A stretch of DNA of 64,000 bases, from NCBI GenBank assembly GCA_035627515.1, contig DASPLQ010000012.1:1276309-1340308 (forward strand). Reading direction: 5' to 3'. A program made the position numbers and the translations under genes. Origin of the DNA: Vitreimonas sp. (GTDB lineage Bacteria; Patescibacteriota; Microgenomatia; UBA1400; PJMF01). The notes under the pieces were generated by a model. It was not told the DNA's origin, searched no databases, and worked only from the letters and a program-made list of their open reading frames with translations. Positions 8,378-58,971 of the stretch are shown one piece after another; position 1 is the stretch's first letter; the number at the start of each line of letters is the position of its first letter.

Positions 8378-9421
8378 TTAAAGTGAGGTGAGTGCGGCGA
8401 GTTGATTCTGAATACTAAATGGCTCGACATCGGATAAATTATTCACTCCAGCCATCATCATCGCAATCCGGTCAATTCCCATCCCTATCCCAGCATATGA
8501 TGTGCCACGCTCACGCATCAAGCGTAAGGCAGTGAGAAAACTTTGATCATAGGGATGTGTAGCTAACCCTTGTTTTTGCCGAGCTTGAGCCTCATTTTCG
8601 AAACTAGTTTGAATAGCTTCTACATCCAAGTTTTCATTGTTACCGTTGGCAATTTCAATACCATTGATAAAAGCCTCGAAACGCTCAGCCAAATAAGGTT
8701 TGGCAGCATTTACTTTGCAGAGGGGAGAGAGACGACGAGGAAAATCTACCAAAAAGAAAGGCTGAGTAGGTAAGTAAGGCTCTACTTCATTTAAGAAAAG
8801 TTGGTCAAAAAGTTGACTCCAGGTGGCATTCTCTACATGATAACCTCGTTGCTGCATTAGCGTTTGGAGCGACTCATCTTCTAAAATACTTTTCATATCA
8901 AGGTGTGCATGTTGAGAAAACAACTGCTCCATAGATAGGACCGGCCATTTTTTTTCGAAATCAATGATGGTTTCTTCCAGTAATAAAGTCAGCTGAGAAT
9001 CATCTTGTATATACTCAGCCACCCGGAGCTTCACAAATCGCAACAACTCTTCCACATCTGCCATGATGTCTGTATACACAGCATCCTCACGGTACCACTC
9101 CAGCATTAAAAACTCGGGATTGTGTCGCGAACCGGCCCCTTCCATATTCCTAAAACACTTACCAATCGCATAACAATTACCACTACCTTGGGCTAACATT
9201 TTTTTGAGGCCGCTTTCCGGTGAGGTTGATAAATAAAATGTTCGCTCTTCACCGAGTGGCTTCCAAGTGGAAGAAAATGAAAAGATATTGGGTTCTAAAG
9301 GAATTGCTACATTGAAAGTGGGCGTAATCACTTCGTGGAACTGTCGTTGATCAAAAAAAGTGCGGATGGCCTTAATGACTACTTCACGAATAAAAACTGG
9401 TTGTAAATTTGGCTTAGACAT
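8378..9421 (-). CDS. epmA: EF-P lysine lysyltransferase EpmA (PoxA/GenX, truncated class II LysRS paralogue)
   Basis: The class II aaRS motifs FRNMEGAGSRHNPEFLMLEWYR and GIGMGIDRIAMMMAG are present, but the N-terminal anticodon-binding domain is missing. At 347 aa it is the EpmA size. Confidence 0.75.
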   Translation of the reverse strand: MSKPNLQPVFIREVVIKAIRTFFDQRQFHEVITPTFNVAIPLEPNIFSFSSTWKPLGEERTFYLSTSPESGLKKMLAQGSGNCYAIGKCFRNMEGAGSRHNPEFLMLEWYREDAVYTDIMADVEELLRFVKLRVAEYIQDDSQLTLLLEETIIDFEKKWPVLSMEQLFSQHAHLDMKSILEDESLQTLMQQRGYHVENATWSQLFDQLFLNEVEPYLPTQPFFLVDFPRRLSPLCKVNAAKPYLAERFEAFINGIEIANGNNENLDVEAIQTSFENEAQARQKQGLATHPYDQSFLTALRLMRERGTSYAGIGMGIDRIAMMMAGVNNLSDVEPFSIQNQLAALTSL

Positions 9422-20440: not shown

Positions 20441-20512
20441 GAGCGGGTGAAGGGAGTCGAACCCTCGTCACCAGTTTGGAAAACTGGAGCTCTGACCGTT
20501 GAGCTACACCCG
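20441..20512 (-). tRNA. tRNA-Gly (anticodon TCC)
   Basis: I hand-folded a cloverleaf on the minus strand: acceptor GCGGGTG/CACCCGC, U8, D-stem GCTC/GAGC, anticodon loop TT-TCC-AA and T-loop TTCGACT. Confidence 0.85.
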
Positions 20513-20573
20513 CAAGAGTTGTATTGTACCTAGTTTCATGCGGAAACTCTAGTATCTGTGATTACTTATATAC

Positions 20574-25434: not shown

Positions 25435-25518
25435 GCCTCGATGGCGGAACTGGTAGACGCGCGAGACTTAAAATCTCGTTCCCGCAAGGGAGTGTGGGTT
25501 CGATTCCCTCTCGAGGCA
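25435..25518 (+). tRNA. tRNA-Leu (anticodon TAA), type II with long variable arm
   Basis: The acceptor stem is GCCTCGA/TCGAGGC, the D-arm reads TGGCGGAACTGGTAGACGCG as in bacterial tRNA-Leu, the anticodon loop is CT-TAA-AA and the T-loop is GGTTCGATTCC. The gene is 84 nt. Confidence 0.9.
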
Positions 25519-25559
25519 CAAGGCTAACTACACTTTAACATCCTAATCATTTTTCCACT

Positions 25560-25634
25560 CGGGGAGTAGCTCAGATGGCTTAGAGCGCGCGCTTTGGGAG
25601 CGTGAGGTCGCAGGTTCGAGCCCTGTCTCCCCGA
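25560..25634 (+). tRNA. tRNA-Pro (anticodon TGG)
   Basis: The acceptor stem is CGGGGAG/CTCCCCG with U8, the anticodon stem CGCGC/GCGTG, the loop TT-TGG-GA and the T-loop TTCGAGC. Confidence 0.88.
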
Positions 25635-25750
25635 CACAGTAGGGTTGTTTTTGAAATTTAAAGAATTCTTCATCGACCTGTAACTTGTTCTCGTCGTCAC
25701 ATGTATCTTGTAAGAATGAATTTTCAGTAAGTGCTTATAATTAATTTTAT

Positions 25751-37029: not shown

Positions 37030-38481
37030 ATGTCACCTCACCAAGTCCTTAAACAGTACTTTGGCTATGACGAGTTCAGGCCTGGGCAGTTGGAGATTAT
37101 TGAAACCATCATTAGTGGTCAAGATACCTTAGCACTGATGCCGACTGGCGGCGGGAAATCGCTGTGTTTTCAGGTACCGGGGTTGGTATTAGGAGGCACC
37201 ACCATCGTGGTCTCACCATTGATTTCATTGATGAAGGATCAGGTAGATACGCTGAATCGCAAAGGTGCCCGAGCTACTTATCTAAATAGCTCTTTGTCTG
37301 CTCCCGAAAATCAGCAACGGTTGGCAACATTTATTAATCAAGGTTATGACTTTGTGTATGTCGCTCCCGAAAGATTACTTAATCAAAAATTTATTGCCGC
37401 TTCACAGCAGGTCAAGATCAACTTAATTGCCATTGATGAAGCCCATTGCATCAGTCAGTGGGGTCATGATTTTAGGCCCGAGTACTACCAAATTCATGAG
37501 TACGTAAAAAAGTTGGTTCGGCGACCAGTCCTGGCGGCCTTTACTGCCACTGCTACTAAAGCCGTACAGGATGACATTGTTCACTCTTTGCAATTATCTA
37601 TACCTCGCATTTTTAGCCAGAGTTTTAGGAGAACGAACTTAAAATTAACCGTGGTGAAATGTCAAAATATGTTAGCCAAAGAGTTGTATTTGTTGTTTTT
37701 GCTGACCAAGTTTAAAGGCCAAACCGGCGTAATTTATGCTTCCACGCGCAAAAGTACCTTAGCAGTCAGTACATTCATCAATCAATTTTTTCCGGGTTCG
37801 GCGGTGGCATATCATGGGGGTCTAGATAGCGAAACTCGAGCGAGTATCCAAGAAGCTTTCTTGAATAATGACTATCAACTGATTGTGGCTACCAACGCCT
37901 TTGGCATGGGCGTGGATAAAGGTGATGTTAGATTTGTGATTCACTATCAAGTTCCCGGCAACTTGGAAAATTATTACCAAGAAGCGGGGAGAGGCGGCAG
38001 AGATGGCGAACGTGCTGAGTGTTATCTATTAATACATCCCAGTGACGCAAACATTCATCAGCAGTTTATCGGCGCTCTGCCACACCATCCTAAACACCTT
38101 CAGCTCTTACATCACAAATTAAAATCAATGCTCATGTTCACCCAGCTTGACGTTTGTCGAACTCAATTTTTACTTACTTATTTTGGGGAAAACACTCAGC
38201 TTAGTAATTGTGGCGCTTGTGATATCTGTCTTGGAGAAACGCTGCGCATCACCGTTGATCAACAACAATACTGGCAATTGTTACTCGCCTTCCGCTTGCA
38301 CTATAGCAAGATGATGGAGATTACTCCTACCGAAGTGATGCCTGAAACGGTGATGTATTATCTGACGTTACTTCAACCCACCACTCAGCAAGCATATGCC
38401 AAGATCCCCGGCATTGGGCAAGGATGGCTGGAAAAATGGTACTCGCCGTTAACAGATTTTCTTAACAATCACCCGCTTTAA
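37030..38481 (+). CDS. recQ: RecQ-family ATP-dependent DNA helicase (helicase core + RQC-like zinc region, no HRDC)
   Basis: Motif I TGGGKSL, motif II DEAHCISQWGHDFR, HYQVPGNLENYYQEAGRGGRDG, and the Cys-containing region CGACDIC are present. Confidence 0.9.
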   Translation: MSPHQVLKQYFGYDEFRPGQLEIIETIISGQDTLALMPTGGGKSLCFQVPGLVLGGTTIVVSPLISLMKDQVDTLNRKGARATYLNSSLSAPENQQRLATFINQGYDFVYVAPERLLNQKFIAASQQVKINLIAIDEAHCISQWGHDFRPEYYQIHEYVKKLVRRPVLAAFTATATKAVQDDIVHSLQLSIPRIFSQSFRRTNLKLTVVKCQNMLAKELYLLFLLTKFKGQTGVIYASTRKSTLAVSTFINQFFPGSAVAYHGGLDSETRASIQEAFLNNDYQLIVATNAFGMGVDKGDVRFVIHYQVPGNLENYYQEAGRGGRDGERAECYLLIHPSDANIHQQFIGALPHHPKHLQLLHHKLKSMLMFTQLDVCRTQFLLTYFGENTQLSNCGACDICLGETLRITVDQQQYWQLLLAFRLHYSKMMEITPTEVMPETVMYYLTLLQPTTQQAYAKIPGIGQGWLEKWYSPLTDFLNNHPL

Positions 38482-39277
38482 ACCATCCACTTTGCGTGGC
38501 TTCGACTTCACTGCAGAACCAACGTTCTCCTTTATTCTCATCTATTTTGACTAAATTATATTGAGGACATTGAGGCAAATGATACAGCTGTCCACGATCG
38601 GAAACATTGCCTTTGATGACACAACCATCGCTCAACTCGGCGGCATTGGAAGGCAGGGTTAAGCGTTCATCAGCTTGGTTAATTACGGTATTAATTTCTT
38701 CTAAATTGCGTGTCTCACAGCTGCCCCATAGTCCCATTGCGGCTTTTTGTGCGGTATCTTGAGCAGCTTTCAACTCGGGTTGGCGGCTGACATCTGGAGG
38801 ATAGCTACTGGCATAGGCATATCCCTGTTCTACTAAAGTTTTATTAATTAAAGTGCCCTCAAGCCACACATATCGCAATAATCGACCATACCGATCACTT
38901 TCACTGACGTCTTTTTCTAGTTGAATGACTTTACCAGCCACTAGTTCCTTATTTTTAGCACTGGCTTCTTTCCCGAAGCACTCTACACCTTTGGCTGGGT
39001 GACGAGTTTCCGGAGTATCAATGCCAATGTAACGGACTTTGCGCCCATCATTTAACTCGATGGTGTCACCATCAATGACCGTTTTTACCTGCACCGTTTC
39101 AAAACCTTGTTCGTCTTTTACACCCAGAACAGTTCGAGATGGAGAAAAGGTGGGGAGGACCAATGGCAGTGTGGAGCTTTCTTTCCAGGCAACAACAATG
39201 GTACCTAAGATCAAACCTACACCGATGCAAAAAACCATCCATGACTTGAGGCGACGTGAAAACAAAAAGCGAATCAT
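38462..39277 (-). CDS. Membrane-anchored thermonuclease (SNase-like) with C-terminal Cys-containing domain
   Basis: An N-terminal TM helix precedes the SNase motif VIDGDTIELNDGRKVRYIGIDTPE. The C-terminal domain has several Cys residues. Confidence 0.7.
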   Translation of the reverse strand: MIRFLFSRRLKSWMVFCIGVGLILGTIVVAWKESSTLPLVLPTFSPSRTVLGVKDEQGFETVQVKTVIDGDTIELNDGRKVRYIGIDTPETRHPAKGVECFGKEASAKNKELVAGKVIQLEKDVSESDRYGRLLRYVWLEGTLINKTLVEQGYAYASSYPPDVSRQPELKAAQDTAQKAAMGLWGSCETRNLEEINTVINQADERLTLPSNAAELSDGCVIKGNVSDRGQLYHLPQCPQYNLVKIDENKGERWFCSEVEATQSGWFKAGDC

Positions 39278-39309: not shown

Positions 39310-41202
39310 CTAGCCCAGCTCACAATTTTGATATAGTTTGCCATCTTTAAAACCACGTTTGCGATAGTACTCACGGGTACCAATGGCAGAAATGACAGCT
39401 AATTCTGGGAAATAAGCTTGGTGTGCTAACTCTTTAGCTCGCTCAATTAATCGTGTGCCTAAGCCTAAATGTTGAGCCCGACCCTGCGCTTTATCACCGA
39501 CGTCTACCGCTTGGCCATAAACATGGACTTCACGGATGATCGCAGCTTGTTTTAATTCTTCCACAAACGAGGGCTGCTTGGGCAAACTCAGGCGCAAAAA
39601 AGCCGCAATCTGATGTGTCTCTTTTATCACATACTGCAGAAAGATTTCGGTACTGACGGCGGTGTCATACTTGATTTCATCCAGCTCTAAATCTTCAAAC
39701 ACAAACTGAGTATTCTTGATCTCACGAGCCCGGATATCCTGCGATCGTTCGCCGGCAGTAGCTAATTTCTGTTCAGCGATTTGGCGAAAATTGGTTAATT
39801 TATTACCGACTACAATGTCAGTGGAAGGAATATCTCGGATGACGCGAGTTAACCGACAATACTGCGGCGTTTGTTGCAAACAAAAGGTCAGGACATCTAA
39901 TAATTCTTCGTACGTATACGGTTGCCATTTGCCTGCTTGGTAGTACTGCATTAACTCAGCACTTTCAATCAATGAACAGGGATAAATTTTTAATTCATCG
40001 GGTTTAAAATCAGGGTCGCTAAAGAGAGTCAGATAATCTTGTTTATCAAGCTCTACTGAGGAACCGTAGAGATTAGCCATCCAGTGAGCATGAATTTTAA
40101 AGCCAGCTTGACGCAATAAATTGACAGCACGGCGAGTAGCAGCCACATCGTGACCACGCTTATTCTTTGTCAGGACCTCATCACTTAAACTTTGAAAACC
40201 AATCTGGGTTTTGGTGCACCCCAAACGACGCACCCGCAACACCTCAGCCTCAGAAATATTATCGGGGCGCGTCTCGATCACCAAACCCACCGAACGGCTA
40301 GCAGCGGTCTCATTAATTTTTTGTTCGCTCTCTAACTCTTCCCAGGTAGCTGATTGATACTTATCAAATCCGGCCAAACGCTCCGGAGCTACATACAACT
40401 CAGAGATAGCTTGGTTATAGGTTTTATGAAAGTGTTCACCTTGGATTTGTTGTGAGGCTAATTGTTGTTTATTCTGTGCTGGATTATTGGAAGGCGCATG
40501 ACGCTGCATATTTTGGAACGTACTCGACATTTGTTGATAGCGCTCTTCAATAGCGATTCGATCATCTTTAATCCCAAACTCATTCAAGGCTCGCAGACAC
40601 TCTTTGATAAACCAAATTTGGTAGCTTTCAGGATAATATGACCAGGTTCCACCTAAAACAATTAGCTCAACCTTATCTACCGAGTGACCAATATTTTGAA
40701 AAGCTTGGAGACGATTATAGGTTTGGAGGTAGGGATCGAAGTAGTTACGCTCGGCTCGCTGCGCGCCGGGTTCATCTGATAAATAGCTCTTAGGCATGCG
40801 GATATCGTTGGGACAAAAAATACACGTCCCTGGACAAGGGAAAGGCTTAGTCAGGACAGTGACTGGCGTCACACCAGACATAGTCCGAATTGGTTTCATA
40901 GTCAAGTAATGAAGGATTTTTTCTTGAGTGGGTTGCAAACCTTGAGTACCAGCCAGCTCTCGATAAGCTTTCAATAACTCATCTTTGGAAAAAACCGCTT
41001 TGTCAGGTTTGGGATATTTTTTGGTAATCTTCCGGACGCTGGCTTCAGTGAATTTATCCAGCTTTTCCAACTCGCTTAAAAGGGGAAGTAGCTGATCAAG
41101 ATGGAGCTGATACTCAAAGTGATAAGATGTCATGAAAGGTGTATTATAGCCTGGAACCATATGACCCAGCAAACTATCCGCACCTTGAACGCACTTAATC
41201 AA
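39310..41202 (-). CDS. Elp3 homologue (radical SAM + GNAT acetyltransferase; tRNA U34 carboxymethyl-type modification enzyme)
   Basis: The radical SAM cluster reads KPFPCPGTCIFCPND...SYLSDEPGAQRA...DPYLQ, matching the Elp3 pattern KP..CP..G.C.YCPGG...SY...EP...RA...DPY.Q. The C-terminal GNAT fold (HLGLGTRLIERAKELA, YRKRGF) is present. The 630-aa length leaves an N-terminal extension of about 100 aa. Confidence 0.8.
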   Translation of the reverse strand: MIKCVQGADSLLGHMVPGYNTPFMTSYHFEYQLHLDQLLPLLSELEKLDKFTEASVRKITKKYPKPDKAVFSKDELLKAYRELAGTQGLQPTQEKILHYLTMKPIRTMSGVTPVTVLTKPFPCPGTCIFCPNDIRMPKSYLSDEPGAQRAERNYFDPYLQTYNRLQAFQNIGHSVDKVELIVLGGTWSYYPESYQIWFIKECLRALNEFGIKDDRIAIEERYQQMSSTFQNMQRHAPSNNPAQNKQQLASQQIQGEHFHKTYNQAISELYVAPERLAGFDKYQSATWEELESEQKINETAASRSVGLVIETRPDNISEAEVLRVRRLGCTKTQIGFQSLSDEVLTKNKRGHDVAATRRAVNLLRQAGFKIHAHWMANLYGSSVELDKQDYLTLFSDPDFKPDELKIYPCSLIESAELMQYYQAGKWQPYTYEELLDVLTFCLQQTPQYCRLTRVIRDIPSTDIVVGNKLTNFRQIAEQKLATAGERSQDIRAREIKNTQFVFEDLELDEIKYDTAVSTEIFLQYVIKETHQIAAFLRLSLPKQPSFVEELKQAAIIREVHVYGQAVDVGDKAQGRAQHLGLGTRLIERAKELAHQAYFPELAVISAIGTREYYRKRGFKDGKLYQNCELG

Positions 41203-41907
41203 CAGTTTTACCTCACCGTGGCCGATGATTTTGCTGATTCACGGCAGTACTTTTGGGAAGGCTGGGAGCAGACGTTACCACATTTGGGCAGTGAGCCCTT
41301 GCGTGTCATTGACCTGGGGTGTGGCACCGGTCGATTTGGTGTTTTTCTAGCTGAAAAAAAAGCCTCCTCGTTTCATTATGTAGGGATTGATAATAACCAG
41401 ACTCTGCTCGATAAAGCTCAGACTGCGTTACAAGCTTCATCTCTGTCGTATGAGTTACACTTTTTAGACCTGGTGGAAAATCTTCTTACCGGCACCCTTA
41501 ATTCAGTTTTAAATTCAGTCCAACCAACTACCATTGTGGCCTTTGGAGTCCTTCATCACATACCCAGCTTTGCACTCAGACAACAGTTTCTCCGTGAGTG
41601 TGCTCAGGCTTTACCAGCAGGGGGGGAACTTATCGTGGCAGCCTGGCAGTTTCTAGACAGCCCTCGCTTAACACAACGGATAGTAAAACCTGAAACACTC
41701 GGCATTGCCACCTCAGACCTAGAAGAGAATGATTACATTTTAGACTGGCAGCGGGGACCAAGGGCTTATCGCTACTGCCATCAAGTGACTCCTGATGAGA
41801 TGCAAGCATTACTGGCTGAGCTGCCGCTGCGTGTTGGTCACCACTTTCGCGCCGACGGCCAACCCACCCCGCTCAACCATTACTGGTTACTCGAGTCTGT
41901 AATCTAA
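41161..41907 (+). CDS. Class I SAM-dependent methyltransferase, Trm9-like N-terminal region (tentative)
   Basis: FYLTVADDFADSRQYFWEGW...VIDLGCGTGRF parallels the Trm9 N-terminus (YVHKVYDEIAPHFSQTRYKPWP...GIDVGCGNGKY). The ORF opens at 41101, and the Met at 41161 is the likely start. Confidence 0.55.
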   Translation: MTQQTIRTLNALNQQFYLTVADDFADSRQYFWEGWEQTLPHLGSEPLRVIDLGCGTGRFGVFLAEKKASSFHYVGIDNNQTLLDKAQTALQASSLSYELHFLDLVENLLTGTLNSVLNSVQPTTIVAFGVLHHIPSFALRQQFLRECAQALPAGGELIVAAWQFLDSPRLTQRIVKPETLGIATSDLEENDYILDWQRGPRAYRYCHQVTPDEMQALLAELPLRVGHHFRADGQPTPLNHYWLLESVI

Positions 41908-41949: not shown

Positions 41950-42408
41950 ATGAAAGTCTTTCTCTCGTTAGCTTTGATTGTTTTCTCAATAGTAGGCCTG
42001 GCTGATTCGAGTTATATCACCTACGAAGAACTCAGTGGCCATATTCCGGTCTGTGGGGCAGGGTTTGACTGTGGGCAGGTATTAAATAGCCCATGGGCGT
42101 GGATTGGGCCAATGCCATTGTCAGCGCTGGGCATGGTTTATTACGCCACGGTATTATGTTTAGCGATCGCTTATTTTTTGGAATGGGATTGGGGACAGCT
42201 GGTTGCCAACCGCACCGGGTGGCTTATTCCTAGTGAACGGTGGCTACTGCTATTAACCAGCACTGGTTTTTTGTTCTCACTCTTTTTGATCGGGTTAATG
42301 GCCTGGGTAATTGAAGCCTGGTGCCTCTTTTGTTTATTCTCAGCTGCTTCATCGACAGCGTTATTTATCGTTAGTATTGGTTTACAACGTTATGCAACCC
42401 GCTCTTAG
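41950..42408 (+). CDS. VKOR-family (vitamin K epoxide reductase-like) membrane thiol oxidoreductase
   Basis: A loop Cys pair (CGAGFDC) and a membrane-embedded CLFC CxxC motif in the last helix are present. The protein is 152 aa with 4 TM helices. Confidence 0.6.
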   Translation: MKVFLSLALIVFSIVGLADSSYITYEELSGHIPVCGAGFDCGQVLNSPWAWIGPMPLSALGMVYYATVLCLAIAYFLEWDWGQLVANRTGWLIPSERWLLLLTSTGFLFSLFLIGLMAWVIEAWCLFCLFSAASSTALFIVSIGLQRYATRS

Positions 42409-43480
42409 CTCCACTACTGCCTTTTTATATCAGCGTTTATTTAAGCCGGTGGTATTTTTAATGGATCCTGAGTTTATTCACAATCAACATGCGCTTTTTG
42501 GAGTTCAGTTAGGTAAGGTGGGACCAGCTAAAAACATGCTGTCGTGGTTATGGTCGTATCAAAACCCTAAACTTCAGCGAACTTTAGATGGGATTATGTT
42601 TCCTAATCCGGTAGGGTTGGCAGCTGGCTTTGATTACAATGGCGATTTAACAGGCATTTTACCGGCAGTCGGTTTTGGCTTTCACAGCATTGGCACAGTC
42701 ACCTTAAACGCCTATGAGGGCAATCCTGCACCTCGACTCGGTCGCTTTCCAGGCTCGAAAGCACTGCTCGTAAATAAAGGTCTCAAAAACCTAGGCGCCG
42801 AAAAAATTATTGATAAGCTCTCTCATCTCCCTCAACCCGCATTTAGTATTCCTACGGGAATTAGTATTGCCAGCACCAACCGAGCGTATAAGAATGATAC
42901 GGAACAAATTAAAGAAATTATCAAATGTTTTCAGTTGTTTGAAGCTTCGTCACTTTCTCATGCTTACTACGAGCTCAACATCAGTTGTCCTAATACTTTT
43001 GGCGGCGAACCTTTCACCACGTGTCCACGACTAGAGGAACTTTTGCAAGCCATGGATAAATTAAACTTACGCAAGCCGCTGTATGTAAAAATGCCGATTG
43101 ATCAGGAGGAAGAAGAATCATTTCAATTATTAAAAGTGATTGCTAAACATAATACTCAGGGTTTAATCTTGGGAAACCTAACGAAAGATAAAAATAATCC
43201 TGCCCTTACCAAAGCAGATCTTAAAAAATGGCGACAGTCAGCTGGAAATGTCAGTGGCAAACCTACCTGGAATCGATCCAACCGTTTAATTAAGTTAGCC
43301 CGAAGCAAATATAAAAATCGTTTTACTTTAATTGGCACCGGGGGAGTGTTCAGTGGCAAAGACGCTCAGCATAAACTCAATCTAGGTGCTGATTTAGTAC
43401 AATTGATTACGGGAATGATTTTCCAAGGCCCTCAACTCATTGGGCAGATTAACCAGTATTTAGCAAAAAATGTGCGCTAA
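42392..43480 (+). CDS. pyrD: Dihydroorotate dehydrogenase (quinone), class 2
   Basis: FPNPVGLAAGFDYNGD and NISCPNT are present, and the N-terminal amphipathic segment is typical of class 2. The ORF opens at 42311, and the Met at 42392 matches the PyrD N-terminus (LDPE.IH). Confidence 0.75.
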   Translation: MQPALSSTTAFLYQRLFKPVVFLMDPEFIHNQHALFGVQLGKVGPAKNMLSWLWSYQNPKLQRTLDGIMFPNPVGLAAGFDYNGDLTGILPAVGFGFHSIGTVTLNAYEGNPAPRLGRFPGSKALLVNKGLKNLGAEKIIDKLSHLPQPAFSIPTGISIASTNRAYKNDTEQIKEIIKCFQLFEASSLSHAYYELNISCPNTFGGEPFTTCPRLEELLQAMDKLNLRKPLYVKMPIDQEEEESFQLLKVIAKHNTQGLILGNLTKDKNNPALTKADLKKWRQSAGNVSGKPTWNRSNRLIKLARSKYKNRFTLIGTGGVFSGKDAQHKLNLGADLVQLITGMIFQGPQLIGQINQYLAKNVR

Positions 43481-58894: not shown

Positions 58895-58900
58895 TTACTG

Positions 58901-58971
58901 ATGCCCGACTAGGATTCGAACCTAGATAAACAGCTTCAAAGGCTGCTGTCCTGCCATTAGACGATCGGGCA
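58901..58971 (-). tRNA. tRNA-Gln (anticodon TTG)
   Basis: I hand-folded the minus-strand cloverleaf: acceptor TGCCCGA/TCGGGCA with U1-A72 as in bacterial tRNA-Gln, anticodon stem GCAGC/GCTGT, loop CT-TTG-AA and T-loop TTCGAAT. Confidence 0.85.

Follow-up and report, generated by a model that had tools for sequence, protein, structure and literature searches.

The question raised by this locus is whether an Elp3 protein and a methyltransferase encoded head to head in a bacterial genome form a tRNA wobble-uridine modification module of the kind found in archaea and eukaryotes. Based on the analysis of the window (the whole 64,000-nucleotide stretch of DNA), we consider such a two-gene module of the archaeal/eukaryotic type likely. 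The carrier is a bacterium with a small genome (the contig measures 1.41 Mb) and most likely belongs to the Patescibacteria. In the proposed pathway, Elp3 would install cm5 on U34 of a tRNA held by the N-terminal helical region and the central cleft, and the Trm9-like methyltransferase would then methyl-esterify the cm5U34 carboxylate with SAM, yielding mcm5U34. What the two enzymes catalyse, on which tRNAs, and what product they make in vivo are all predicted from sequence. An Elp3 plus Trm9 wobble module had been suggested in an earlier note on this DNA; its core, the two-step route from U34 to cm5U and on to mcm5U, is backed computationally, while three side claims did not stand, as described below.

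Both open reading frames (ORFs) reported in the 39310–41907 region are real and lie at the positions originally given, and a translation check recovered all of the motifs that had been quoted from them, namely CPGTCIFC, QHLGLG and YLTVADDFADSRQYFW...DLGCGT. The longest ORF on the Elp3 side (39310–41202, minus strand) has 630 codons and a TTG start, and that on the methyltransferase side (41101–41907, plus strand) has 268. The starts of the database proteins are, however, at 41133 and 41161, respectively (Table 1). The TTG start at 41202 was rejected, because the Elp3 homologues begin at the position of their N-terminal consensus, MxxYxFDY, and because a conserved TATAAT box falls inside the would-be extra codons. 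With starts at 41133 and 41161, the two genes are transcribed away from each other across a 27-bp gap (41134–41160), without any overlap. Thus, the shared, overlapping start region described previously is an artefact of longest-ORF calling, and the true genes encode 607 and 248 amino acids.

Table 1. Coordinates of the features of the Elp3–methyltransferase locus (window positions)
Feature	Position	Strand	Remarks
Elp3 gene	39310..41133	-	607 aa + stop; GenBank HYD35771.1, annotated Elp3
KAT/GNAT domain	39313..39696	-	acetyl-CoA motif QHLGLG (39457-39474), C-terminal YY
~86-aa insertion in radical SAM domain, aa 183-268	40330..40587	-	lineage-specific
Radical SAM cluster motif CPGTCIFC	40813..40836	-	C100, C104, C107; CX3CX2C
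Elp3 N-terminal region, aa 1-78	40900..41133	-	counterpart of tRNA-binding N-terminus of archaeal/eukaryotic Elp3
Divergent spacer	41134..41160	.	27 bp; holds bidirectional -10-like box TATTATA (41142-41148)
Trm9-like class I SAM methyltransferase gene	41161..41907	+	248 aa + stop; HYD35772.1
N-terminal putative substrate-binding motif Y17-x10-R28-x3-W32	41209..41256	+	= ScTrm9 Y18...R29...W33
H132-H133	41554..41559	+	= ScTrm9 H115/H116
C-terminal hairpin W196...R204-Y205-C206-H207	41746..41781	+	= ScTrm9 W168...R241-Y242-Y243-H244

The short spacer carries a box that reads TATAAT in the Elp3 direction, 9 nt from the Elp3 ATG. Among 59 unique spacers taken from related loci, 55 contain a TATAAT-like hexamer in this direction (17 on average and at most 26 after shuffling) and 42 the exact TATAAT (2.4 on average after shuffling), with the 3' end of the box mostly located 6–11 nt from the Elp3 ATG. 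On the plus strand, GTGATA-17-TATTAT at 41119–41147 represents a candidate site for the methyltransferase direction. The single AT-rich box of the spacer can be read as a -10 element on either strand; the two genes are therefore probably co-regulated, and the Elp3 mRNA probably has no leader or almost none.

The large ORF encodes a true Elp3, as opposed to just any protein that combines radical SAM and GNAT domains. It matches the TIGR01211 (ELP3) profile with a score of 466.5 bits (cutoff, 350), over residues 92–624 of the 630-aa ORF and positions 47–517 of the 522 in the profile. A sequence search of the PDB returned Elp3 proteins only (1e-98 to 3e-70), the best match being MinElp3 (6iad, 1.1e-98). 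The same picture emerged when the AF2 model of the protein (pLDDT 82.5) was compared with the PDB using Foldseek: the best 11 matches are all Elp3 (TMt 0.82–0.89, E 2e-35 to 2e-29), and the first non-Elp3 match after these is HemN, at 1.8e-5. Both Radical_SAM and Radical_SAM_C of Pfam match the protein. The three cysteines of the cluster motif are invariant across 49 Elp3 homologues, and CPGTCIFC aligns with CPGKCIYC of DmcElp3. Pfam matches to the GNAT region (Acetyltransf_10/7) are weak and below the cutoff; the C-terminal domain aligns with the KAT domain of MinElp3, and Q554, H555, G557, G559, Y589 and Y590, as well as the REYY motif, are invariant in the 49 homologues. The original description of a radical SAM protein with a C-terminal GNAT domain thus holds, with TIGR01211 above its cutoff and the Elp3-specific two-domain fold recovered. 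Stand-alone archaeal and bacterial Elp3 bind tRNA and hydrolyse acetyl-CoA upon tRNA induction without the other Elongator subunits (PMC6367351). Formation of cm5U34 by the protein described here is predicted from its family membership. Older database names of its homologues read 'histone acetyltransferase, ELP3 family'.

An N-terminal extension of about 100 residues without a counterpart had been attributed to this Elp3. In fact, it consists of the 23-residue over-extension of the ORF and a normal Elp3 tRNA-binding N-terminus. The tRNA-binding region spans residues 1–75 in MinElp3, 1–95 in the yeast protein and 1–78 in the human one (PMC6367351), and its role has been set out in PMC6367351 and PMC11096365. 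In our alignments, query residue 67 corresponds to human residue 65, residue 48 to yeast residue 54, and residue 71 to residue 44 of MinElp3. The region is modelled as four helices with pLDDT of about 86–93, and the best TMq of the whole model (0.75) is to tRNA-bound human ELP3 (8ptx_C), which, at 538 residues, is also the largest of the targets and gives the longest alignment (631 columns). An unusual feature of this Elp3, absent from the earlier note, is the insertion of about 86 residues in the radical SAM domain. All nine PDB Elp3 matches (9/9) are split in two stretches around it. Most bacterial relatives have 60–90 residues at the insertion site and a few have 22–31. The insertion is predicted to be helical (pLDDT 62–81), and its invariant residues include Y199, P218, N221, Y239, N240, Y247 and W264.

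Among the characterised proteins, MinElp3 from Methanocaldococcus infernus (6ia8, 6iad) is the closest in both sequence and fold (E 2e-35, TMt 0.88 for the latter). The two share the radical SAM plus KAT architecture, the N-terminal tRNA-binding region and the absence of other Elongator subunits (PMC6367351). By contrast, the cysteine motif is CX3CX2C in the window Elp3 and CX4CX2C in MinElp3, the helical insertion is absent from every solved Elp3, and the N-terminus of the window protein is predicted to be helical and ordered and shows no marked excess of basic residues (12 K/R versus 11 D/E). The characterised bacterial homologue, DmcElp3 from Dehalococcoides mccartyi (5l7j), has the same CPGxCI[FY]C motif and two-domain fold, but lacks both the N-terminal extension (PMC6367351) and the insertion, being 459 residues long versus 607. 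The window Elp3 scores 294 bits against DmcElp3 and 335 bits against the archaeal protein. One characterised bacterial Elp3 has been termed 'a rare example' (PMC6367351), and rarity in bacteria was also assumed in the first description of this locus. However, Elp3 is common in this lineage, with more than 8000 clusters at 90% identity for the form of about 600 residues.

The second protein has a class I SAM methyltransferase fold, in which both motif I and the acidic residue in strand 2 are present. Single-sequence searches against Pfam and NCBIfam identified generic families alone (Methyltransf_12/31/25/11), and a single-sequence PDB search gave no match to Trm9; these matches, all being generic, cannot decide whether the protein is related to Trm9. 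When the family profile was compared with the PDB, the top match was Yarrowia Trm9 (5cm2_Z), leading the generic methyltransferases by 0.2 bits only; its alignment covers profile positions 27–229 and is the sole one of the three listed that passes the Rossmann core. With hhalign, the family aligns end to end with 27 fungal Trm9 sequences (99.6% probability, E 1.2e-24, 209 columns). As this comparison covered Trm9 only, the evidence for specificity comes from the segments beyond the SAM core. The N-terminal segment alone matches the N-terminus of Trm9 with an E-value of 1.5e-7 (0.24 for the reversed control), and the C-terminal segment alone gives a weak match (E 1.8e-4). An HMM of fungal Trm9 scores 18.8 bits on the window methyltransferase and up to 29 bits on unrelated methyltransferases of the loci. 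Fold searches neither single out Trm9 nor rank it first, and pairwise identity to Trm9 is low (~20%). The family comprises about 2200 clusters at 50% identity, and the JGI pipeline independently names more than 14 of the homologues 'tRNA (uracil-5-)-methyltransferase TRM9'.

Eight residues are required for ScTrm9 activity: R29, D72, H116, W145, W168, R241, Y243 and N271 (PMC4678810). Seven of the eight are kept in the family, the exception being Y243 and the match to W168 being alignment-dependent. The equivalents, which are invariant or nearly so in the family, are R28 (R29), D77 (D72), H133 (H116), W162 (W145), W196 (W168), R204 (R241) and N239 (N271; 49 of 55 members); in addition, Y18 corresponds to Y17 and H115 to H132. 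Substitution R29A lowers the activity of Trm9 to about 5%, and H116 is essential, the H116A mutant being inactive (PMC4678810). The cm5U carboxylate and uracil ring have been proposed to be held by R29, H115/H116, W145, R241, N271 and Y18 (PMC4678810), and the equivalents of these residues are the most conserved positions of the methyltransferase family. Y17 is present in 55/55 members and R28 in 54/55, the H132–H133 pair is invariant (55/55) and aligned by both HMMER and hhalign, and W196 and R204 are likewise invariant (55/55). Equivalence of W196 and W168 is found in the HMMER alignment alone, as hhalign shifts the hairpin segment. A cysteine, C206, takes the place of Y243 in 48 of the 55 members. 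Compared with the characterised Trm9/ALKBH8 proteins (Yarrowia 5cm2, ScTrm9, HvoTrm9), the window protein shares the class I fold, the N-terminal Y...R...W, HH after strand 4, W after strand 5, the W...RY.H hairpin and the C-terminal N (PMC4678810). It differs in the Cys for Y243, in an extra helical segment of about 12 residues after strand 3 (aa 104–118) and in having no detected Trm112 partner nearby. The parallel with Trm9 drawn in the earlier note is supported: single-sequence searches gave generic answers, whereas specific affinity emerges at the profile level and nearly all Trm9 catalytic residues are kept. Conversion of cm5U34 to mcm5U34 by this enzyme is predicted from the profile similarity, the conserved catalytic residues and the gene linkage.

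The same residues bear on an alternative that we judge unlikely, namely, that the methyltransferase acts on the tRNAs of Elp3 in a reaction different from that of Trm9, so that the end product would not be mcm5U. The methyl group could then go to a nearby base, to the ribose or to a different atom of the xm5U side chain; alternatively, the product could be an intermediate that is converted further. Replacement of Tyr243 by Cys in 48/55 members is consistent with such a reaction, as are the lack of a Trm9 preference in fold searches and the only moderate similarity to the fungal Trm9 HMM. Moreover, in Haloferax and yeast lacking Trm9, cm5U is diverted to other products (PMC6144793), implying that the downstream chemistry of the pathway differs among lineages. 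Nevertheless, R29, H115/H116, W145, R241, N271 and Y18 of Trm9 all have equivalents in the family, and the similarity extends beyond the SAM fold to the substrate-binding N-terminus, both of which argue against this alternative.

Genomic context provides another line of evidence, and the divergent pairing of the two genes is far above chance. In metagenomic loci seeded with Elp3, the methyltransferase gene is immediately upstream and divergent in 64 of 74 informative cases. In genomic loci seeded with the methyltransferase, a divergent adjacent Elp3 gene is present in 37 of 73 informative cases and lies within 2.5 kb in six more, while 29 of the 73 have no Elp3 within 6 kb. Adjacency in related genomes, which the earlier note had singled out as a check, is thus conserved in several phyla; the labels of the genome records with paired loci are Patescibacteria, Chloroflexota, Myxococcota/Deltaproteobacteria and Acidobacteriota (at least four phyla). 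De novo ORF clustering across 160 loci revealed no third conserved partner gene. RecQ, a MazG-like protein, RarA and VKOR-DHODH were considered as partners and rejected as lineage synteny in Patescibacteria. Pairwise identities of Elp3 and the methyltransferase correlate (r = 0.70, Mantel p <= 0.001), which is a nonspecific result, since shared phylogeny would produce the same correlation. Linkage of this kind has a precedent in Sulfolobus solfataricus, where the Elp3 and Trm9 genes are clustered, and Trm9–Trm112 of Haloferax produces mcm5U (PMC6144793). If the methyltransferase were instead a generic UbiE/Methyltransf_11 enzyme acting on a small molecule or a protein, its adjacency to Elp3 would be inherited synteny devoid of functional meaning. 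This is very unlikely, given that the same head-to-head arrangement recurs in at least four labelled phyla while all other neighbours vary, that nearly all invariants of the family coincide with catalytic residues of Trm9, and that the N-terminus alone matches Trm9. Finally, the GNAT domain and the older homologue names could suggest that Elp3 mainly acetylates proteins (on lysine) or serves some other purpose unrelated to tRNA, and that the methyltransferase shares its non-tRNA target, but this is highly improbable because Elp3 acetyl-CoA hydrolysis is induced by tRNA and not by histone or tubulin peptides or other nucleic acids (PMC6367351), and because this Elp3 retains both the cysteines of the radical SAM motif and the tRNA-binding N-terminus.

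For the wobble-uridine module favoured here, the accessory requirements of the second step are also of interest. Eukaryotic and archaeal Trm9 need Trm112. No Trm112-like ORF was detected in the window or in the 160 loci, a weak negative obtained with one E. coli YcaR seed and zinc-knuckle patterns; a single match with E = 0.03, overlapping the start region in one locus, is unconvincing. Among the 20 window ORFs scanned, none encodes MnmE/MnmG or CmoA/CmoB/CmoM. These enzymes, responsible for cmnm5U/mnm5U and cmo5U/mcmo5U, respectively, share with the Elp3 pair the C5 position of U34 as the target, and CmoM is likewise a class I methyltransferase that esterifies a carboxyl group (8joz is a weak match, 4.9e-4, covering the SAM motif only). 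However, their routes depend on GTPase/FAD/folate or carboxy-SAM chemistry, as opposed to the radical SAM/acetyl-CoA chemistry of the Elp3 pair, and the enzymes are unrelated.

A broader scenario, which seems to us possible if rather doubtful, is that a self-sufficient Elp3/Trm9-like pair generates mcm5U-type U34 in Patescibacteria and in several lineages of Chloroflexota, Myxococcota and Acidobacteriota, needing neither Trm112 nor the accessory subunits of Elongator, and possibly in place of MnmE/MnmG. The roles of the missing partners might then have been taken over by the 86-residue insertion and the ordered N-terminus of Elp3 and, in the methyltransferase, by the additional helices that follow strand 3.

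Our literature search found no report of a bacterial Trm9, of mcm5U in bacteria or of Elp3 in Patescibacteria/CPR. As wobble modifications, mcm5U and the nucleosides derived from it are considered archaeal and eukaryotic, and the gene pair predicts their presence in bacteria. Because some Chloroflexota relatives have been cultured (PMC8941918), the module should be directly testable. If the prediction is correct, the pair would provide a simple two-protein system for Elp3 chemistry and for Trm9 activation without Elongator, and possibly without Trm112. With about 2200 methyltransferase clusters and more than 8000 Elp3 clusters, the conserved pair would make the mcm5U pathway a routine component of translation in a large proportion of the uncultivated bacteria. 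It also bears on the question of origin, that is, whether the module descended vertically from an ancient ancestor or was transferred between domains as a unit.

The large protein of the divergent pair is an Elp3. It scores 466.5 bits against the NCBIfam model TIGR01211 (ELP3; cutoff 350) and its sequence matches in the PDB are to Elp3 only, the best being the archaeal MinElp3 of Methanocaldococcus infernus (1.1e-98), followed by DmcElp3 of Dehalococcoides mccartyi (3e-86) and by mammalian and yeast Elp3 (about 1e-76 to 3e-70). The top 11 structure matches of its AlphaFold2 model (pLDDT 82.5) are all solved Elp3 structures (TMt 0.82-0.89), with HemN next at 1.8e-5. Family members invariably keep the CX3CX2C cysteines of CPGTCIFC, the QHLGLG motif for acetyl-CoA and the C-terminal YY. 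Score, PDB matches, fold and motifs thus rule out a protein that is merely radical SAM plus GNAT and confirm the assignment of the earlier note. Bacterial Elp3 is already known, and the window gene carries the Elp3 annotation in GenBank.

The two divergent ORFs described previously are present as longest-ORF calls (see the table). The shared, overlapping start region proposed for them is not: the shorter deposited starts leave the genes head-to-head, separated by a spacer. The N-terminal consensus of 49 Elp3 homologues is MxxYxFDY, corresponding to MTSYHFEY in the window, and a conserved promoter-like box between the two shorter starts lies inside the codons added by the longer Elp3 ORF, which argues against gene overlap. 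Among 59 unique spacers of related loci (L001-L160; median about 35 nt), 55 contain a TATAAT-like hexamer directed toward Elp3 (shuffles: mean 17, maximum 26) and 42 an exact TATAAT (shuffle mean 2.4). In most cases, 6-11 nt separate the hexamer's 3' end from the Elp3 ATG. The opposite-strand reading of the window box is TATTAT, with GTGATA ahead at 17 nt. These sequence patterns suggest that the spacer is a shared bidirectional promoter core and that the Elp3 mRNA may be leaderless or near-leaderless.

Features of the window, with positions and strands
Feature	Position	Strand	Remarks
EpmA/GenX-like protein (EF-P lysine aminoacylase family)	8378-9421	-	258.7 bits, just under 286.9-bit cutoff
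tRNA-Gly(UCC)	20441-20513
tRNA-Leu(UAA)	25435-25519
tRNA-Pro(UGG)	25560-25635
RecQ-family helicase	37030-38481	+	truncated; TIGR01389 profile positions 2-400 of 591 matched
Thermonuclease (NucI-like)	38462-39277	-	same strand as Elp3, directly 3', 32-bp gap
Elp3, longest ORF	39310-41202	-	630 aa, TTG start
Insertion in Elp3 radical SAM domain	40330-40587	-	~86 aa, residues 183-268 (607-aa numbering)
Elp3, deposited HYD35771.1	start 41133	-	607 aa
Spacer	41134-41160		27 bp
Box TATTATA	41142-41148	both	9 nt from Elp3 ATG
Methyltransferase, longest ORF	41101-41907	+	268 aa
Methyltransferase, deposited HYD35772.1	start 41161	+	248 aa
Methyltransferase segment after strand 3	about 41470-41514		aa 104-118
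VKOR-family ORF	41950-42408	+
Quinone-dependent dihydroorotate dehydrogenase (DHODH)	42311-43480	+	~100 nt overlap with VKOR ORF, different frames
tRNA-Gln(UUG)	58900-58971

Once the start is corrected, ~78 aa precede the conserved Elp3 core, instead of the ~100 aa said earlier to lack a known counterpart. This region aligns with other Elp3 N-termini (residue 67 with human 65, 48 with yeast 54, 71 with MinElp3 44) and is therefore a known feature without novelty; residues 1-75 of MinElp3, 1-95 of the yeast protein and 1-78 of the human one make up the corresponding tRNA-binding N-terminus (PMC6367351). In human ELP3 it contacts the anticodon stem-loop (PMC11096365). The tRNA-bound human structure 8ptx_C gives the highest query-normalised TM-score for our model (0.75) and, among the Elp3 structure matches, is both the largest target (538 residues) and the one aligned over the most columns (631). 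We read this as a probable match to the human N-terminus, a reading of score and lengths rather than something displayed in the search output. Four confident helices are predicted for the region in the model, and it is not markedly basic (K/R 12 versus D/E 11).

What does set this Elp3 apart is an insertion within the radical SAM domain, overlooked by the earlier note. All PDB Elp3 matches break in two around query residues 209-289 (630-aa numbering), and the insertion is missing from each solved Elp3 (archaeal, Dehalococcoides, yeast, mouse and human). The segment spans 60-90 residues in most pair-carrying bacterial relatives and 22-31 in a few, contains invariant residues in the homologue alignment, and is predicted to be helical with moderate confidence in the AlphaFold2 model. 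A role in tRNA binding or as a partner replacement is speculation.

The relationship of the methyltransferase to Trm9 emerges at the level of the family. As a single sequence it is generic: its Pfam matches are to Methyltransf_12/31/25/11, no NCBIfam model exceeds its cutoff, and a phmmer search of the PDB returned no Trm9 and only a weak match to CmoM, confined to the SAM motif. The family is large (2197 representatives at E <= 1e-30, 50%-identity clusters). When a 55-sequence family alignment was used as a profile against the PDB, Yarrowia Trm9 (5cm2_Z) came first (2.7e-11), leading generic methyltransferases by 0.2 bits only; of the three alignments inspected, it alone continues outside the Rossmann core, as far as profile position 229. 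Aligned by hhalign with 27 fungal Trm9 sequences as the one reference family, the profile matches over 209 columns, nearly end to end in both families (probability 99.6%, E 1.2e-24). Since the SAM core is common to any two class I methyltransferase families, non-core segments were aligned separately: the N-terminal segment alone matches Trm9 at E 1.5e-7 (reversed control 0.24) and the C-terminal one at 1.8e-4 (control 5.9e-3), the core giving 3.6e-19. The fungal Trm9 HMM gives the window methyltransferase only 18.8 bits (family median 36.6) and other methyltransferases in the loci up to 29 bits. This low score and the use of Trm9 as sole reference family in hhalign count against a strong Trm9 claim. 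In an independent assignment, the JGI annotation pipeline gives many homologues the name TRM9.

Mutagenesis of yeast Trm9 (ScTrm9) identified R29, D72, H116, W145, W168, R241, Y243 and N271 as required, and H115 and Y18 were placed in the modelled cm5U pocket (PMC4678810). Counted over the 55 family members, Y18 (window Y17), H115 and H116 (H132 and H133), W145 (W162), W168 (W196, in the HMMER alignment; hhalign shifts this segment) and R241 (R204) have equivalents in 55/55 each, R29 (R28) and D72 (D77) in 54/55, and N271 (N239) in 49/55. Invariant family positions thus coincide almost entirely with those of the Trm9 active site. The clear exception is Y243, which is not conserved, being C206 in the window and Cys in 48/55. 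The enzyme further differs from Trm9 in an extra helical segment of ~12 residues after strand 3, whose two short helices fall in a gap of fungal Trm9 and have no counterpart there. Strand 3 is the edge paired by Trm112 in Trm112-methyltransferase complexes, so the segment could be related to Trm112 independence.

Adjacency of the two genes is conserved in related genomes carrying several phylum labels. With the methyltransferase family as seed and one genome per species (80 loci, 73 informative), Elp3 is immediately upstream and divergent in 37/73 (estimated gap -2 to 299 bp), divergent at 0.6-2.5 kb in six, in the flank but not divergent upstream in one (L019), and absent within 6 kb in 29, mostly Anaerolineae and Phototrophicaceae. 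The unlinked methyltransferases have the same catalytic residues and interleave with linked ones by nearest neighbour, and thus belong to the same family with linkage lost. With Elp3 as seed in metagenomes (80 loci, 57-72% identity, 74 informative), the methyltransferase is immediately upstream and divergent in 64/74, divergent at 619 bp in one, matched elsewhere in the flank in one (L154) and absent from the flank in eight. Clustering of ORFs over the 160 loci leaves Elp3 and the methyltransferase as the sole genes common across the set. Their pairwise identities correlate (r = 0.70, Mantel p <= 0.001, 89 pairs), consistent with joint inheritance; shared phylogeny predicts the same.

Adjacent-pair records are labelled Patescibacteria (Pacebacteria and others), Chloroflexota, Deltaproteobacteria/Myxococcota and 'Marinacidobacterales' (Acidobacteriota), and several TPA records bear implausible labels, such as the 'uncultured Pseudomonadales' found on many related TPA MAGs. 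Vitreimonas is an alphaproteobacterium. GenBank labels HYD35769-HYD35772 'Vitreimonas sp.', whereas the nearest homologues are from Pacebacteria, Woesebacteria, Dojkabacteria and 'Patescibacteria group'; these homologues, the contig size of 1.41 Mb and ~42% GC point to a patescibacterial host instead. RecQ, a MazG-like protein, RarA and VKOR/DHODH near the pair are Patescibacteria synteny. The RecQ-family helicase is a conserved neighbour of the pair in 81 loci, apparently as such synteny and not as a functional partner. The sequence of the NucI-like protein, judged by eye, suggests a hydrophobic segment at the N-terminus and a C-terminal extension containing Cys. In some related loci, among them L149 (625-2190), one stop-to-stop ORF, 522 codons long, matches the VKOR/DHODH cluster; it may be a VKOR-DHODH fusion, or the window may carry a frameshift.

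Eukaryotes and archaea are known to have an Elp3-to-Trm9 pathway. In the window, Elp3 would use the established radical SAM/acetyl-CoA chemistry to form cm5U34, which the Trm9-like enzyme would methyl-esterify to mcm5U34. In the absence of other Elongator subunits, stand-alone Elp3 proteins of archaea and bacteria bind tRNA, which induces them to hydrolyse acetyl-CoA (PMC6367351). Archaeal Trm9-Trm112 makes mcm5U and needs cm5U; in Sulfolobus, the Elp3 and Trm9 genes are clustered (PMC6144793). The window pair differs from these systems in its bacterial host and in the Elp3 insertion. No Trm112 was detected near the pair in the window and 160 loci (a weak test, with one seed sequence and a motif scan), and the 20 window ORFs scanned, from a 1.41-Mb contig, include no MnmE/MnmG, 2-thiolation enzyme or Trm112-like protein. 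All four window tRNA genes have U at position 34, so that a wobble-uridine pathway could act on their products. In Haloferax, tRNA-Gly(UCC) is one of the tRNAs whose U34 modification is uncharacterised (PMC6144793). Our literature search found no paper on bacterial Trm9, a bacterial Elp3/Trm9 pair, or Elp3 in Patescibacteria/CPR. That mcm5U-type wobble modification would be widespread in several bacterial phyla is a well-supported prediction from these sequences, open to test in cultured Chloroflexota.
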